Source of the DNA: a virus
Length of the DNA: 33,468 nt
Direction: 5' to 3' (one strand)
Virus genome (UHGV): UHGV-0120943
In this document: positions 212 to 15,025 of the stretch, piece by piece
Position numbering within the stretch: position 1 is the stretch's first letter
Layout of the letters: each line of letters opens with the position of its first letter
The notes under the pieces: model-generated
Database searches by the model: none
What the model was told of the DNA's origin: nothing
The model's input: only the letters and a program-made list of their open reading frames with translations
Made by a program: the position numbers and the translations under genes

Positions 212-1396
212 ATGATCAGAACAATAGCAATACGTAATTTCAAATCGTTGGTTGATGTCTCGATCAACCTACAAAAATTTAATTGTTTTGTAGGCATGAA
301 CAGTGCGGGTAAAAGTAGCATATTGCAGGCTATCGACTTCATATCGCAACAAATGCATGGATACCTCTACCTCTGGTTAGAAGATCGTGGCTGGGAGTCG
401 AAGGATCTGTACTCTCGAACGAGCAATACTAAAGCGTTTTCTCAACCACTGTTCATAGAAGTTATTTATGATCTGGACGGAAAATGCCTCGTCTGGCAAG
501 GTCATTTCAATCGTAGCCTTATGAGAATGACCCGAGAAAGTATCCATATAGACGGAGAAATGTACCTTGAGGTTATTGATGGGAAGTACAGAACACATGG
601 AAGAAGCTATGACTCAATACCTTTTGAGTATAGTGGTTCAATTTTGGCAACATTAAAAGATAACGTCATTTCTTCTGATGTTATTCATTTTCGTGATGCG
701 CTGAAAAATATCCGCTCTCTCGAGTTACTGTCTCCTCATTTATTGCGAAAGCGCTCCCGTTCGGAAATTAAACCCTCCGGAGTCGGCATTGGTGGAGAAA
801 AACTTTCGGGATACATTGATACGTTAACTCACGATGATAAAAAGATACTTCAACAGATACTCATAAAATTCTACCCACAGATAGTTGGTCTGAGAACGTC
901 GACGTTGAAAGGTGGTTGGAAACGACTGATTATTCAGGAGCGCTTTGTCGATGCAAACGGTGATGAGGCTATTTGCGAGACCGAAGCCGGACAACTCAAT
1001 GACGGATTGTTGCGTATTTTGGCCGTAATTGCTCAGCTAGAGTCCAAAGACGGGTCATTGCTTCTCTTGGATGAGATCGAAAACGGGATTAATCCGCAAG
1101 TTATTGAGCTGCTGGTAGATACTTTGGTTAATGCAAAAACGCAAGTCATTGTGACAACGCATAGCCCAATGATCCTCAATTATCTTGAAGATGATGTTGC
1201 GCGTAAGGGCATCCAGTTTGTTTATAAATCGCCACAAGGGCAAACGCGTGTCCGACCTTTCTTTGAAATGCAGCGTATAAATGAAAAACTTCAGGTCATG
1301 GGGCCTGGTGAAGCATTCATTGATACCGACCTTCAACGGCTGGCGCATGAAAATATAGAGCTTGATGAGATGCGACAAGACCTTATTAAGGATTGA
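212..1396 (+). CDS. ABC/OLD-type ATPase (AAA_15/AAA_21-like), candidate PARIS AriA-like defense ATPase
   Basis: 394-aa ORF. N-terminal IRNFKSL plus Walker A GMNSAGKSS; Walker B/D-loop LLLLDEIENGINPQ; H-loop VIVTTHSPMILN. Stop overlaps the downstream start (TGATG). Confidence 0.8.
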   Translation: MIRTIAIRNFKSLVDVSINLQKFNCFVGMNSAGKSSILQAIDFISQQMHGYLYLWLEDRGWESKDLYSRTSNTKAFSQPLFIEVIYDLDGKCLVWQGHFNRSLMRMTRESIHIDGEMYLEVIDGKYRTHGRSYDSIPFEYSGSILATLKDNVISSDVIHFRDALKNIRSLELLSPHLLRKRSRSEIKPSGVGIGGEKLSGYIDTLTHDDKKILQQILIKFYPQIVGLRTSTLKGGWKRLIIQERFVDANGDEAICETEAGQLNDGLLRILAVIAQLESKDGSLLLLDEIENGINPQVIELLVDTLVNAKTQVIVTTHSPMILNYLEDDVARKGIQFVYKSPQGQTRVRPFFEMQRINEKLQVMGPGEAFIDTDLQRLAHENIELDEMRQDLIKD

Positions 1397-2154
1397 TGAT
1401 GATTGTTGTATTGAGTGGAGAGGGGCCGTCTGATCTCGGCAGTTGTGTAAACGGGCAGGGAGAATGTCTGATAAATGATTTCAACCATGGCCCGATGACA
1501 TATTTTATAGATAAAGAGCTGGAAACATTGCTTGGGTTCTCTCTTCTTGAAATAACGCCAGATCGTTACATTTTTGTCTCAAAATCTGAGCTGATCAGAC
1601 TGACTTCAGCGAAGCGACAAAACCGATCTAGTATGAGTCTGTTAGGGAAGAAAAGGCCTGAAAAAGAGACAGGTTACTTTTATCTCAATGCTTTAATACT
1701 GGGGAATAGAGCTGCTGAGCTTGCAATTGAGCATGAAGATCCCGCAGTGATCGCAGTACTTTTTAGGGACTCTGATGGCACACGTTCTGCGAATTTATCG
1801 CTATGGCAGGATAAAGTAAACTCGATACGTCATGGATTTGATAATTCAGCTATAGGCGAACGCGGTGTTGCCATGGTTCCTAAGCCTAAGTCTGAGAGTT
1901 GGATGCTATGTGTGCTGAGAGATGGTTATGAACACTGCGCAAGGCTGGAAGATTTATCCGGGAATGATAATGTCCCCGACTCAGCTAAAAGGCAGCTGGA
2001 AGAGGCTTTAGGAAGTAATGCTTCGACATCGGCACAGATTCATCACCTCAAGCAAAGTGGCATTGATACGGCAAGACTTGCTGCACAGATGCCGAGTTAT
2101 GACGCGTTCCAACTAAGTTTGGCTGCTGCATTTCGCTTGGCTGCACAGGTTTAG
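1396..2154 (+). CDS. TOPRIM-like (OLD-family/DUF4435-like) partner of the upstream ATPase, candidate AriB-like effector
   Basis: About 252 aa, translationally coupled to the ATPase. N-terminal IVVLSGEGPSD fits the OLD-family TOPRIM hhhxEGxxD motif; a later AVLFRDSDGT supplies a DxD-type acidic motif. Track start 1393 is TTG; ATG at 1396 or 1399 is more likely. Confidence 0.65.
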   Translation: MMIVVLSGEGPSDLGSCVNGQGECLINDFNHGPMTYFIDKELETLLGFSLLEITPDRYIFVSKSELIRLTSAKRQNRSSMSLLGKKRPEKETGYFYLNALILGNRAAELAIEHEDPAVIAVLFRDSDGTRSANLSLWQDKVNSIRHGFDNSAIGERGVAMVPKPKSESWMLCVLRDGYEHCARLEDLSGNDNVPDSAKRQLEEALGSNASTSAQIHHLKQSGIDTARLAAQMPSYDAFQLSLAAAFRLAAQV

Positions 2155-3199: not shown

Positions 3200-3688
3200 T
3201 TACCCCAACCTCAAGTTCTTTAAACGATAAGTCATCGCATCGTCAGATACGCCAAAATAATGCGCCATTATATAACTTGGTTGGCCGTCAGCGTGCAGTT
3301 TTCTGACCTCATCAACCGGCATCAGAAGTTCTGCTGCGAACTTGTTCGCAAAAATTTCATCAGGATGCGTTCCGGCGCTTGCGGTTTCGCCACGTAAATC
3401 AACGTACTCATATTCATCACTATGCGATGCTTGCCGGGCGATGTAATGCCCCAACTCATGCCCACATGAAAAACGTTGACGAACTTTGTTGTCATCACTG
3501 TTTAGAAAGATCGCTGGATCTTGATCTTTTTGTTTAATCAGTGCGCCAGAAACTTTCCCAGGAAGATCGGTAATAAAAACATCTAATCCCATGTCGTGAG
3601 CAATTTTCGCTGGATCAACAGGGAAACCACGCCCGCACCAGAACGTGTCCAGCACTCGCCGGGCGTGCTCTCTTGGGTTGGTAGCCAT
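3200..3688 (-). CDS. ImmA/IrrE-family zinc metallopeptidase (HEXXH)
   Basis: 162-aa ORF with HELGHY zinc-binding motif in the FSCGHELGHYIARQ context typical of ImmA/IrrE (COG2856/DUF955). GGAGGAG Shine-Dalgarno upstream of the ATG. Confidence 0.8.
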   Translation of the reverse strand: MATNPREHARRVLDTFWCGRGFPVDPAKIAHDMGLDVFITDLPGKVSGALIKQKDQDPAIFLNSDDNKVRQRFSCGHELGHYIARQASHSDEYEYVDLRGETASAGTHPDEIFANKFAAELLMPVDEVRKLHADGQPSYIMAHYFGVSDDAMTYRLKNLRLG

Positions 3689-11471: not shown

Positions 11472-11741
11472 TTAACCGCGTGCCTCACGACCCTCCTCGT
11501 CCTCAGGTACACGATATCGCCAGTATTTGTCCGGCCTAACCCAAACAACATCCCCGCCGCTATCAACTCTGAACTTATTTATGACTTTTGTTGAAAGTGC
11601 TTGGTTGCCGTCTGCATTTTCCTTCAAATGTTGCTCATTACCAACTTTGACCAAATAATCAACGACGTCCTGCTGGTATAAGCATCCATCTTTTTGTAGT
11701 GCAGATAACATCCAATTTGATACATCTGCAACAGCTAACAC
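11472..11741 (-). CDS. Hypothetical protein
   Basis: 89-aa minus-strand ORF immediately downstream of the DUF2158-like gene. Confidence 0.5.
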   Translation of the reverse strand: MLAVADVSNWMLSALQKDGCLYQQDVVDYLVKVGNEQHLKENADGNQALSTKVINKFRVDSGGDVVWVRPDKYWRYRVPEDEEGREARG

Positions 11742-11755
11742 AGTGGTTGATTGGG

Positions 11756-11974
11756 TTATGGCTTTGGGATGAATTTATCTAACGACTCTTCTGGGAAATT
11801 ACCACTGTCTAATTTCCTTCCTGCAAACCATTGGCAACGGTAGTTACCATTGAAGGTATCCGATAAGGTAGTAAGTGGTTTTTCAACAGTCATTGCTGGG
11901 CCACCTGATTTCAATACGACTAGCTCCCCTTTATTAAATTTTGCAACTGGAGTTTGTGAAGGTGCTTTAGCCAT
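11756..11974 (-). CDS. Small protein, YodC/DUF2158-like
   Basis: 72-aa ORF; FNKGELVVLKSGGPAMTV resembles the DUF2158 signature (KxGDxVxLKSGGPxMTV). Confidence 0.5.
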   Translation of the reverse strand: MAKAPSQTPVAKFNKGELVVLKSGGPAMTVEKPLTTLSDTFNGNYRCQWFAGRKLDSGNFPEESLDKFIPKP

Positions 11975-12081
11975 TTTATGTCCTTAAAAGTTAGTGATAT
12001 GACAATGATTAGATGGCGACAATAGGTATAAATTTCAATAATAACAACTTGACTTAGCTCACAAAATTTAAAGGAAATCTT

Positions 12082-12246
12082 ATGGCAAAACCGAACTGGG
12101 GAGCACTGCAACACCAGTTCCTCGCCGACCATGCCAAAACGGGTATATCACCGAAAGAATGGTGTGACGCGTAGGGACTGAGCTACGCAACAGCTCGCCG
12201 ACGTATAAAAAACAACTGCGCAATGTGCCAAAGAGCTGGTGGCTGA
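12082..12246 (+). pseudogene. Fragment of a small-terminase-like gene with in-frame amber codon
   Basis: Good RBS (AAGGAAA) and ATG at 12082 encode MAKPNWGALQHQFLADHAKTGISPKEWCDA, then TAG at 12172-12174. The same frame continues GLSYATARRRIKNN... and stops again after about 23 codons. The N-terminus resembles an HTH-type small terminase subunit as I recall it. Confidence 0.4.
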
Positions 12247-12439
12247 TGAAAGAGACGTTTTACTTAAACGAGAGGCCGCCTTTTTTGTTTCAAGGCGGCA
12301 CACATTCAACAGATTAAGGTAACCGATTTGACCATTTAGTTGCGCGCCAGTTGTTCTGAACCATAATCACCTGAAGTATCTCATCTGAAGGCTCCGCTTC
12401 GCGGCGTAAACATTCTCTTAAAGTTGAACAATGTAGATA

Positions 12440-12625
12440 AGAGGAGCTCGCACGAGTTTGATAGACCTGATGCGAGCCCCCGATTCCTGTCCTGAAAGGG
12501 AGATAGCCCCCCTGGTCGCGGGTCCTTTCCGAAATCCAAAACACCGAGGGTCGGTAGACGCGCAAAAACTCGCTCGTTTTTAGTATTTTTTCATTTTGGG
12601 TATTTCCGGTTCCGGTGAGGATTTT
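12440..12625. other. Putative cos/packaging-signal region
   Basis: Non-coding stretch directly upstream of the terminase genes, with T-rich and TTCCGGTT elements (TTTCCGGTTCCGGTGAGG). Inferred from the lambda-like gpA terminase; termini not determined. Confidence 0.25.
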
Positions 12626-12627
12626 TA

Positions 12628-13176
12628 ATGGCAAGTCAGGCTGAGGTATCAGATCGTCGTCTGCGCGATCTCGCAAAACTTCCGGGAGCTCCAGTCCCAC
12701 AGGGACGTGGCGATTGGGAACTTGACGCATGGCGCCATTTTTATATTCGTTATCTCCGGAGCAATAGACGCGACACAACTAGTAATGACGAACCGGAAGC
12801 GGGGGACAATTCTCCCGAAAAAAATCGCGAGCAGTGGCTGAAAAATGAGGAACGACAGGAGCGAATCCTGATGGCACGAGTAAAACGCCGCATTCTCGCT
12901 AAACGTTACGCGCCAATTGAATTAATTAGCGTCGCTGTATCTCGCGTCGCCGTTGAATTACGTACCCGCGTCGAGTCGTGGCCACCACGATTGAAAAAGG
13001 TGTGGCCTGAAATGCCGCAGGAGGCGAGCAGTGTATTACGAGAGGAGCTGGCGATAGCCCTGAATGAACTGGCAGACATACGAGTCGACTTCAGCGATTA
13101 CGATGTCAGCGATATCGAACGCGATCTCGACAGGGTTGAATCCCTTGCGCGTGACGATACCGATGACGGGGGTTGA
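12628..13176 (+). CDS. Putative terminase small subunit (Nu1 position)
   Basis: 182-aa ORF directly upstream of and overlapping the gpA-like gene. Positional call; no strong motif match. Confidence 0.5.
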   Translation: MASQAEVSDRRLRDLAKLPGAPVPQGRGDWELDAWRHFYIRYLRSNRRDTTSNDEPEAGDNSPEKNREQWLKNEERQERILMARVKRRILAKRYAPIELISVAVSRVAVELRTRVESWPPRLKKVWPEMPQEASSVLREELAIALNELADIRVDFSDYDVSDIERDLDRVESLARDDTDDGG

Positions 13177-15025
13177 GTGGGCTGATAAATATTTTTATCT
13201 CCCTGAGGGCTCCAGCCACATCGCTGGCCACTGGACGACTCAGCCGGTCCAGGTAGTGATGCTCAATATGATGACTAACGACGCGATAAAAATCGTGTCT
13301 GTTCGCAAATCAGCTCGTCTCGGTTATACAAAAATACTCGTCGCGGCGCTGCTCTATTTCGCTGAGCACAAAAAACGTAGTGCCGTGGTCTATCAGCCTA
13401 TCGATGACGAATCGGATGGATTTGTCGCCGACGAGGTTGACCCCGCTATCGCCGAAATGCCGGTGATTCAGAAAATTTTCCCCGACTGGGATAAAAGCAA
13501 CGAGCGTAACAATCTCCAGCGTAAAGAAATGAACGGCGCGATTATTGATTTTCGCGGCGCGAGTACGCCAGGAAATTTCCGGCGACTAACGAAACAGGTT
13601 GTCGAGGGTGACGAAGTTGACGGCTGGCCGCTGGAAGTTGCCAAAAAAGGCAAAGGCGAGGGCTCGCCCATCGAACTGGCGCTCGTTCGAATTAAAGGGG
13701 CAGCGTACCCGAAGGCGATTTTCGGTTCGACACCGACAGTCACCGGTAAAAGTCATATCGAAATGTTGGAAGACGCTGCTGATCTGACGTTTCGTTTTTA
13801 CCTGACATGTCCGCATTGTGGCGAGGAGCAGGTCCTGGTATTTGGTTTCGACGGTATCGAATACGGTCTCAAGTGGGATGACAGCCTGCAGACCAACGAG
13901 GCGAAATCGTCGTCCGCGTATTACCAGTGCTGCCACTGCCCGGAGCATTTTTACTATCGCGATCTCGAAAAAATGGAGCTCGGGGGGCGCTGGATAGCCG
14001 AGGACTGCACCTGGACCCGTGACGGCATTCATTTTTTTGATCATGACGGTGGCGTCGTTCGCGCGCCGAAACACGCTGCGATCGTGATAAACGCCCTGTA
14101 TTCACTGAATCTCGACGGCTGGGGCGAGATTGTCAGCGAGTGGCTGAAAGCGAAAGGCGACCCGCTCAAGGAAAAGACGTTTCATAACACGACGCTCGGC
14201 GAACTCTGGAGCGACGTGGCCAGCGAGCAGCTGGAGCACGATATTCTGGTTAATCGCCGGGAAAAATACGCCAGCCAGGTTCCTGACGGTGTTGTTTATA
14301 TAACCGGCGGCATCGACTCTCAGACGTCCGGGCGCTACGAGTGTTATGTGTGGGGCTGGGGAGCCGAGGAGGAGTGCTGGCTGATTGATAAAACAATCGT
14401 CCTCGGTCGCTACGACGAGGAGGACACGCTGCAGCGCGTCGACGGAGTGATTCGCAAACAATACCGGCGCAGCGACGGGACCACAATCGGCGTCAGTCGC
14501 TGGGCGTGGGATACCGGTGGTATAGATGCGCAGGTCGTTTATAACCGCTCGCTGAAACTCGGTCCGCTGTGGGTCATTCCAATTAAAGGTGCGAGCTCAT
14601 ACGGTCAGCCAGTCGTAAATATGCCGCGTACACGTAACGCGAATAAAGTCTATTTGTCGTTAATCGGTACTGATACGGCAAAAGATTTGCTCGCAATGCG
14701 CCTGCCGCTGGAACCCGATTCTAAATCGGCGACACCAGGTGCGATTCATTTTCCCAACGACGTCGAAATATTCGGCACAACAGAGGCAAAACAGCTCGTT
14801 TCTGAAGTTCTGATCCCGAAACTGATTAACGGTCGCGTCGTTTATCGCTGGGACAACCAGGGCCGGCGAAATGAAGCTCTCGACTGCTGGGTATACGGGC
14901 TGGCTGCGCTGCGTATCAGTAAAATTCGTTTCCAGCTCAATCTCGAGGCGCTCGCTGAGCAACGGAAAAAATCACAAAACAAACTGTCTCTCGAGGAGAT
15001 GGCGAGAATGCTCGGAGGGAGCTAA
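13064..15025 (+). CDS. Terminase large subunit (lambda gpA-like)
   Basis: Blocks matching lambda gpA: VEWADKYFYLPE, CPHCGEEQ, IPIKGASSYGQPV, GTDTAKD, NEALDCWVYGLAALRIS. True start may be an internal Met at about 13103 or 13163. Confidence 0.9.
   Translation: MNWQTYESTSAITMSAISNAISTGLNPLRVTIPMTGVEWADKYFYLPEGSSHIAGHWTTQPVQVVMLNMMTNDAIKIVSVRKSARLGYTKILVAALLYFAEHKKRSAVVYQPIDDESDGFVADEVDPAIAEMPVIQKIFPDWDKSNERNNLQRKEMNGAIIDFRGASTPGNFRRLTKQVVEGDEVDGWPLEVAKKGKGEGSPIELALVRIKGAAYPKAIFGSTPTVTGKSHIEMLEDAADLTFRFYLTCPHCGEEQVLVFGFDGIEYGLKWDDSLQTNEAKSSSAYYQCCHCPEHFYYRDLEKMELGGRWIAEDCTWTRDGIHFFDHDGGVVRAPKHAAIVINALYSLNLDGWGEIVSEWLKAKGDPLKEKTFHNTTLGELWSDVASEQLEHDILVNRREKYASQVPDGVVYITGGIDSQTSGRYECYVWGWGAEEECWLIDKTIVLGRYDEEDTLQRVDGVIRKQYRRSDGTTIGVSRWAWDTGGIDAQVVYNRSLKLGPLWVIPIKGASSYGQPVVNMPRTRNANKVYLSLIGTDTAKDLLAMRLPLEPDSKSATPGAIHFPNDVEIFGTTEAKQLVSEVLIPKLINGRVVYRWDNQGRRNEALDCWVYGLAALRISKIRFQLNLEALAEQRKKSQNKLSLEEMARMLGGS

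Follow-up and report, generated by a model that had tools for sequence, protein, structure and literature searches.

A decayed small terminase gene fragment at a mosaic junction beside the cos/terminase module of virus genome UHGV-0120943

The locus and its surroundings

The window, by which we mean the whole 33,468-nucleotide stretch of UHGV virus genome UHGV-0120943 that was analysed, carries a short gene stub to the left of its terminase genes, at a module junction in what is an E. coli prophage (Table 1). According to both direct reading and the list of open reading frames, an ATG at 12082 opens 30 codons (MAKPNWGALQHQFLADHAKTGISPKEWCDA) that end at the TAG 12172-12174, and past it the frame runs on for 23 codons (GLSYATARRRIKNNCAMCQRAGG) to a TGA at 12244-12246. 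The start is preceded by AAGGAAA (12071-12077), which offers the Shine-Dalgarno sequence AAGGA at a 6-nt spacer. Further upstream lies TTGACT (12049-12054), which is followed by no acceptable -10 hexamer; any correctly spaced one would overlap the Shine-Dalgarno sequence of the stub, and a consensus scan of 11700-12800 for promoters and terminators found no sigma-70-like promoter. The ribosome-binding site is credible and the TTGACT promoter is unsupported. The original prediction had described a well-signalled start; its ribosome-binding site and ATG stand and its promoter does not. The rest of its description (the ATG, 30 residues, an in-frame TAG and about 23 further codons) agrees fully with the direct reading, as does its placement of the functional packaging genes some 450 bp rightward: the resident small terminase starts at 12628, 454 nt from the TAG and 382 nt from the TGA. 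No RNA family was found in or near the stub by Rfam at gathering thresholds. The minus-strand ORFs lying over the stub (11920-12132, 12080-12223 and 12148-12309) have neither homology nor signals and overlap real features, and they were rejected.

On the left, between the lysis region and the stub, there is a minus-strand segment (11472-11974) consisting of two moron-like genes, DUF6953 (11472-11741) and DUF2158/YodC (11756-11974); among 5,426 complete Escherichia coli genomes, only GF43 has this left flank. On the right, the stub is followed by a hairpin that is also present in the stub-less phage vB_EcoM-705R4 and lies at the left edge of the cos module; it is probably the terminator of the minus-strand gene ending at 12314. 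That gene is reduced to its last ~45 codons and is a second gene stub beside the first one: a deletion of about 300 bp at 12453-12455 has taken away the 5' half and the promoter of a WP_001559319-like gene. The missing ~300 bp are present in GF43, CFSAN061769, 705R4 and three of the four sequence contexts read for the exact 30-residue ORF of the window (P0037); the deletion is also seen in ETEC1738 and Logan contig L030.

We infer a cos site about 300 nt to the right of the stub, at about 12549-12560. The linear records of the Aeromonas phages phiARM81ld and PhAER-1/2/5 begin or end aligned with position 12549, reading GGGCGTTAGACC, and these record ends carry a lambda-like GGGCG..GACC motif, from which conserved sequence runs to the start of the small terminase gene. 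A local dyad (12542-12556) lies at the putative cosN, whose sequence resembles the lambda cohesive end GGGCGGCGACCT. The stub lies ahead of the real terminase genes and, as originally predicted, probably upstream of a cos site. Within the 12549-12627 region, a block to the right of the putative cosN (TTTCCGGTTCCGGT, ~12604-12617) is conserved in both E. coli and Aeromonas phages and is possibly the cosB or TerS-binding site of the Nu1-like terminase.

The resident small terminase has 182 residues instead of 188 as a result of an 18-nt in-frame deletion near 12647, which removes AAHLLL from MASQAEV[AAHLLL]SDRRLRDL. The AAHLLL codons are present in all seven relatives examined, including the 99.7%-identical contig L030. 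The deletion appears to fall within the DNA-binding helix region at the N-terminus, so that the resident small terminase may be impaired in this prophage, or the deletion may be an assembly error. The true start of the large terminase is probably internal, near 13145. Further downstream come gpW, a lambda-family portal (portal-B head module), an S49 protease and an E-type capsid protein. A gpA-type large terminase with both of its domains (ATPase and nuclease), accompanied by gpW and a lambda-family portal, makes the module one of the lambda type, and with the PHROG 57 TerS the resident packaging set is complete.

Other parts of the window hold several features of separate interest. An ATPase gene (AAA_15/AAA_21; 212-1396, plus strand) matches the PADLOC model PDC-M25 A with an E-value of 3e-157, and the overlapping gene of its 253-residue partner (1393-2154, plus strand) matches PDC-M25 B with an E-value of 5e-96, making this pair a candidate anti-phage system carried by the prophage. 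A 162-residue ORF on the minus strand (3200-3688) matches the PADLOC capP / RmrA-type metallopeptidase models (E 2e-25) and is possibly one member of a repressor-protease pair within the immunity region. The sole Rfam match in the window is a full-length sRNA-Xcc1 (RF02221; 33031-33116, minus strand), scoring 69.3 bits against a gathering score of 53.

Table 1. Features of the stub and of the adjoining cos/terminase module (positions in the window unless a contig is named)
Feature	Position	Strand	Basis or detail
TerS-derived pseudogene remnant (N-terminal HTH module and collapsed linker of a Terminase_2-type small terminase)	12082..12249	+	PHROG, tblastn, blastn, PGAP
30-codon ORF closed by the in-frame amber TAG 12172-12174, replacing the ancestral CAG (Gln)	12082..12174	+	
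5' segment of the chimera	12082..12142	+	58/61 identical to intact RothC and E. coli 98197 TerS; 35-41/61 to types B/C
3' segment of the chimera, including the common truncation point	12143..12258	+	110-114/116 identical to types B/C; <=65/116 to RothC/98197 TerS
Collapsed TGCGCA-repeat linker	12205..12224	+	Alignment to Klebsiella ST405-OXA48phi1.3 TerS
Junction nucleotides between TerS remnant and cos module	12250..12258	.	Breakpoint range
8-bp G+C-rich hairpin	12275..12299	-	Fold -19.7 kcal/mol, z = -4.3
3' part of 81-residue minus-strand gene	12314..12455	-	C-terminus ...NNWRATKWSNRLP kept; stop codon at 12314
Putative cosN / left cohesive end (GGTCGGTAGACG)	12549..12560	+	Aeromonas phage record ends
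Resident small terminase, 182 residues	12628..13176	+	PHROG 57, Nu1-like position
Resident large terminase, lambda gpA type	13064..15025	+	GpA_ATPase and GpA_nuclease domains; relatives called 626 residues
Repeat clusters at nt ~130-280 of intact TerS genes	L006 2630-2700, L017 2637-2690, L018 2638-2780, L007 2644-2700, L001 565-640, L019 2611-2710, L008 2632-2670		

Homology of the stub to small terminases

The conceptual read-through product (Gln in place of the amber codon, 54 residues) matches positions 1-49 of PHROG 51 with an E-value of 8e-18 and positions 1-45 of PHROG 370 with an E-value of 1e-16; both are 'terminase small subunit' families, and the match holds for the read-through translation only. 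Strong matches were also obtained by searching phage sequences with the stub peptide: tblastn returned 253 phage records, with the best identity of 79% over residues 1-43 (E 3e-18) for the Klebsiella phages RothC and RothD, and further matches to several Klebsiella, Yersinia, Providencia and E. coli phages annotated as 'terminase small subunit'. Compared with annotated small terminases (TerS), the N-terminal 43-47 residues are 70-79% identical. At the DNA level, the stub is 88-90% identical to Klebsiella phage RothC (positions 12081-12181 match the beginning of the RothC CDS 455-1195 at 90% identity) and 88-95% identical to the starts of intact TerS genes by blastn and segment alignment. Pfam and NCBIfam searches with the fragment gave only sub-threshold HTH-type matches (HTH_23, E 0.033; IS66 TnpA, E 0.005), and Pfam gave no Terminase_2 match to the stub. 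Because these matches are below threshold, membership in a curated family is not claimed, and the case was carried by PHROGs and direct homology. The suggested likeness to the HTH N-terminus of a small terminase is therefore beyond chance in terms of PHROG matches, tblastn and DNA identity to intact genes, and these comparisons support the reading of the fragment as the N-terminal HTH-coding end and linker of a small terminase gene.

The intact homologues examined, those of RothC, ST405-OXA48phi1.3, vB_YenM_29.18 and the E. coli prophages ExPEC, TUM9803 and 98197, are 246-364 residues long and encoded directly upstream of a large terminase (TerL). The TerL of RothC has a T4-like N-terminal Terminase_6N domain; the downstream neighbour in ExPEC has no Pfam match. 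In ExPEC (L017 3462-4733 and 4745-5144), RefSeq names the gene directly downstream of TerS, at the place of TerL, 'MalT transcriptional regulator family protein', and the gene at the portal position is named 'anti-CBASS protein Acb1 family protein'; both names look misleading. Six full-length homologues were tested for the Terminase_2 (PF03592) core: in five it begins at residues 75-122, and the sixth, RothC TerS, gave no Pfam match to it. At the position of the amber codon, the codon is CAG in RothC, ExPEC, 98197, TUM9803 and KpST405, CAA in the Yersinia phage TerS and an Arg codon in phage 611R4. The CAG (Gln) named in the original prediction is thus found in five intact genes, next to one CAA and one Arg codon, and Gln (CAG) is the ancestral codon.

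This TerS lineage is built of an N-terminal HTH module of ~45 residues, a low-complexity linker encoded by TGCGCA/TGCGAA tandem repeats and the Terminase_2 core. Intact genes have 5-9 copies of TGCGCA, or 4-5 copies of TGCGAA in the RothC/Yersinia subtype, within ~60-150 nt past the HTH-coding part, and these repeats dictate the odd TAQ/SAQ/ANS composition of the linker; TGCGCA occurs ten times in the whole 33.5-kb window. The cluster is a candidate pac or TerS-binding site and, evidently, a slippage hot spot for indels. In the literature, we found a description of neither this stub nor of TGCGCA repeats as a pac site. Many database entries of 50-86 residues (among P0001-P0036) are N-terminal TerS pieces of this lineage whose sequence turns into out-of-frame junk precisely at the repeat-encoded linker, which could reflect real decay, phase variation or homopolymer sequencing errors. 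It is plausible that the repeat cluster is the reason why breaks and frameshifts concentrate in the linker.

Truncation, linker collapse and junctions

Relative to the TerS of ST405-OXA48phi1.3, the linker of the stub has collapsed by ~53 nt, which shifts the reading frame, and a single TGCGCA (12217) survives, compared with 5-9 in intact genes. Beyond the collapse, homology resumes in a different frame. Nucleotides 12224-12249 (TGTGCCAAAGAGCTGGTGGCTGATGA) match nt 196-221 of the KpST405 TerS at 22 of 26 positions, a score equalled in none of 2000 shuffles, and in frame 2 this tail reads CAKELVADE, the counterpart of CAEELVDDD in Klebsiella TerS, which is the last stretch ahead of the Terminase_2 core. 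TerS homology stops at 12249, the equivalent of residue ~73 and just before the core, leaving ~168 nt of foreign TerS DNA. The original prediction had the frame staying terminase-like for about 23 codons after the TAG and then ending; the likeness was confirmed, but the homology runs past RRRIK, in the other frame, up to 12249. The tail NNCAMCQRAGG of the read-through frame is linker DNA read out of frame.

Both edges of the remnant coincide with changes of relationship. Upstream of its ATG, the sequence is unrelated to that upstream of seven intact TerS genes. Downstream, homology to stub-less prophages (e.g. phage vB_EcoM-705R4) begins at ~12259, and of the 488 complete E. coli genomes that have the cos module, about 464 start to match only at this point. 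The unrelated upstream sequence together with the cos-module homology from 12259 places mosaic junctions at the start codon and at 12250-12258. The ORF 12239-12322 (MADERDVLLKREAAFFV...) was considered as a continued TerS ('LTDQQRLFV') and rejected, since from 12259 onward the sequence occurs in stub-less prophages and the stretch is the hairpin.

The locus does not read as a working TerS gene. Instead of an ORF of family length, there are 30 codons to the TAG or 53 on read-through, followed by the linker frame shift. The next features are not a cognate TerL but the truncated minus-strand gene, the putative cos, a PHROG 57 TerS and a gpA-type TerL. Recoding, that is, amber read-through to a full-length family protein, gives just 53 residues with a junk tail. 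What the locus does display is typical of a pseudogene: family homology with disabling lesions, lesions that vary between lineages, and unrelated flanks, with the cos module also occurring free of the stub. The main defect is the 3' truncation (~12250-12258), combined with the repeat-mediated collapse of the linker, and the amber codon is secondary and lineage-specific.

Distribution and types of the stub

We compared 17 copies of the stub (the window, three RefSeq genomes, seven IMG/VR contigs and five metagenome contigs, plus the ETEC and CFSAN loci) and assigned them to types A, B and C by their left flanks. Type A (the window, E. coli GF43 and metagenome contig OHAB01000317) has TAG at codon 31, with an extra 1-nt deletion in GF43. 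The six type B copies have CAG at this codon and indels near codons 3-8. The seven type C copies, also with CAG, differ in their upstream sequence and offer neither a start codon nor an ORF in the frame of TerS; in three of them codon 3 is TAA. The linker collapse and the 3' end are common to all 17 copies; there is no ORF that the three types have in common. In type B, a 59-residue ORF (P0014, on 38 contigs) covers most of the HTH and exists only by virtue of a fortuitous in-frame upstream ATG. From 12143 on, all copies are 94-100% identical, and because they are so closely related, this conservation neither shows nor excludes constraint.

To the left of 12143 the picture is different for type A, which is close there to intact TerS genes and distant from types B and C, the reverse of the situation to the right (Table 1). 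Type A is thus a chimera formed by a crossover near 12143, within the stub. As this crossover gave the stub the 5' end of a different TerS allele, the stub has served as a recombination substrate since its truncation. The TAG lies to the right of the crossover, where types B and C have CAG, and it is therefore a late point mutation of type A in an already dead gene.

Carriers of the stub are rare among complete E. coli genomes: ~24 of 5,426, and ~24 of the 488 with the cos module. With so few of the module-bearing genomes carrying it, the stub is not ancestral to the cos module as a whole. In draft and run-level assemblies, the exact type A 30-residue ORF (P0037) is on 87 contigs in ~130 collection blocks and the GF43 allele (P0040) on 184 contigs. 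All contexts that were read have the same layout: Q, holins, endolysin, KilA-N, DUF6953, DUF2158, stub, cos, TerS, gpA, gpW, portal. The presence of the 30-residue ORF on many independent contigs with the same prophage layout means that the TAG is a genuine inherited allele. A search of species-representative genomes for the exact junction 20-mer gave one match, to an unrelated Eubacteriales MAG, which we judged to be due to chance, and a scan of IMG/VR for the type A upstream sequence found nothing. The protein database search returned short proteins only (30-86 residues); known full-length homologues were absent from its candidates, and for this reason a predominance of short forms was not concluded.

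Interpretation

Very probably, 12082-12249 is a non-functional TerS relic derived from a phage with a different packaging module, an inert recombination scar that has since decayed. We infer the lack of function from the lesions and from the absence of a shared ORF. According to this scheme, the start of a TerS gene, with the break lying where the linker ends, would have been fused by recombination to a lambda-type cos/Nu1-like/gpA/gpW/portal-B module at the left edge of that module (12259), with the Terminase_2 core and the foreign TerL being lost in the joining event. This might have happened by replacement of the module, or an already broken stub might have been imported with the left arm. 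The lesions of decay include the ~53-nt linker collapse in all copies, 5' indels in types B and C, TAA at codon 3 in some type C copies, the 1-nt deletion in GF43 and the change of CAG to TAG at codon 31 in type A. Type A arose by the later crossover at ~12143 with a TerS allele like that of RothC or E. coli 98197, and the stub thus still acts as a passive homology patch. Late transcription would cover the stub, and type A is perhaps translated into a 30-residue peptide that would lack the recognition helix and for which no role is expected.

The original prediction regarded the locus as a recombination scar, or a decayed second packaging module at a mosaic junction. The scar and the mosaic junction hold; a second module is an overstatement for the ~168 nt of foreign DNA that are left, and the amber codon is not the main defect, as truncation and linker collapse are. 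The comparison with close relatives, proposed there as a search for an intact gene at this site, showed the stub truncated in all 17 copies compared.

Several alternatives have to be weighed against the inert relic. The stub might be kept for a role in cis, either as a residual pac-like site for TerS from co-resident phages belonging to the same lineage or as a patch of homology selected for the exchange of arms with such phages. The dense TGCGCA/TGCGAA cluster past the HTH part of intact genes does look like a DNA-level signal, and crossovers between types A, B and C fall inside the stub (~12143) and at its ATG. However, the stub retains a single TGCGCA (12217) of the 5-9 in intact genes, the repeats are only a candidate pac site, with no support found in the literature, ~95% of prophages with the cos module do without the stub, and recombination at any shared sequence is expected even without selection. 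We consider such a role unlikely. It is quite unlikely, too, that the surviving TGCGCA and the HTH homology would let a co-resident or superinfecting phage of the RothC/98197 lineage start packaging here, making the stub a pseudo-pac, or swap arms frequently. If true, a pseudo-pac would mobilise the adjacent head genes (by the headful mechanism, if the lineage packages so), and the scar would bridge lineages of packaging modules.

A functional mini-protein, in which the isolated TerS HTH would serve as a regulator or as a decoy against competing phages of the same lineage, is very improbable. The good Shine-Dalgarno sequence (AAGGA, 6-nt spacer), the weak similarity to HTH_23 (E 0.033), the type B ORF of 59 residues over most of the HTH (P0014) and the many short N-terminal TerS fragments in databases are in its favour, but the three types have no ORF in common. 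Moreover, the type A reading frame closes at codon 31, short of the predicted recognition helix; type C lacks an in-frame start for TerS, with TAA as codon 3 in three copies; the C-terminal tails are junk read in a shifted frame; and no promoter was found in 11700-12800.

Finally, there are two readings that we can practically dismiss. If the TAG were a sequencing or assembly error in an intact second small terminase gene, a single C-to-T change would be all that separates the window from homologues with CAG or CAA; yet the same TAG is found in independent assemblies (GF43, metagenome contig L023/OHAB01000317 and the 87 + 184 contigs), the frame with CAG restored still has 53 codons and is no long ORF when set against 246-364 residues, the Terminase_2 core is missing, and downstream there is no TerL of the kind that follows the homologues. 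Chance resemblance of a short HTH-like ORF, which the shortness of the fragment and the sub-threshold Pfam/NCBIfam matches might suggest, is hardly credible against PHROG E-values of 1e-16 to 1e-22 aligned from position 1, 88-95% DNA identity to intact TerS starts and a tail match that 2000 shuffles never equalled.

The reading as an inert relic has a direct consequence for annotation: the 30-codon ORF should carry the label of a pseudogene fragment and not that of a second small terminase, and its amber codon needs neither recoding nor a sequencing error as an explanation. It also provides an example of mosaicism, in which a TerS gene would have been broken at the end of its repeat-encoded linker by a module exchange, the stub decayed independently in three sub-lineages and a crossover later fell inside it. 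The TGCGCA/TGCGAA cluster of the intact TerS genes may prove more useful than the scar itself.

Comparison with known systems

The stub shares with the intact TerS of RothC/RothD, ST405-OXA48phi1.3, vB_YenM_29.18, ExPEC, TUM9803 and 98197 the N-terminal 43-47 residues (70-79% identical) and the position after the lysis cassette, and over its first 61 nt it is 95% identical to both RothC and 98197. In contrast to the window copy, the intact proteins have 246-364 residues, a Terminase_2 core (all but RothC) and their own TerL directly next to them.

Gene stubs at module boundaries are familiar from the mosaicism of lambdoid phages, and the cryptic prophages of E. coli K-12 carry truncated packaging genes such as the Nu1 homologues nohA and nohD. 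Remnants of the nohA/nohD type resemble the stub in being a truncated packaging gene beside cos, at the boundary of an exchanged module, that decays without apparent function. They differ in being of the Nu1 type and residing in defective prophages, whereas the stub belongs to a foreign TerS lineage and lies beside an apparently complete cos-type module.

The closest counterpart is the PGAP pseudogene QDY55_RS30540 of ETEC1738 (NZ_CP122768), described as 'terminase small subunit; frameshifted; incomplete; missing C-terminus', which is the same locus. It has the same 3' truncation, the same cos/terminase neighbour and 94-100% identity from 12143; unlike the window copy, it is of type B, with CAG instead of TAG, diverged 5' 61 nt containing indels and another left flank. 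In addition, the NCBI entry P0037, a 30-residue 'terminase small subunit [Escherichia coli]', is identical to the 30-residue ORF of the window. Through this pseudogene call and this entry, both the kind of stub and, effectively, this very one are already on record.
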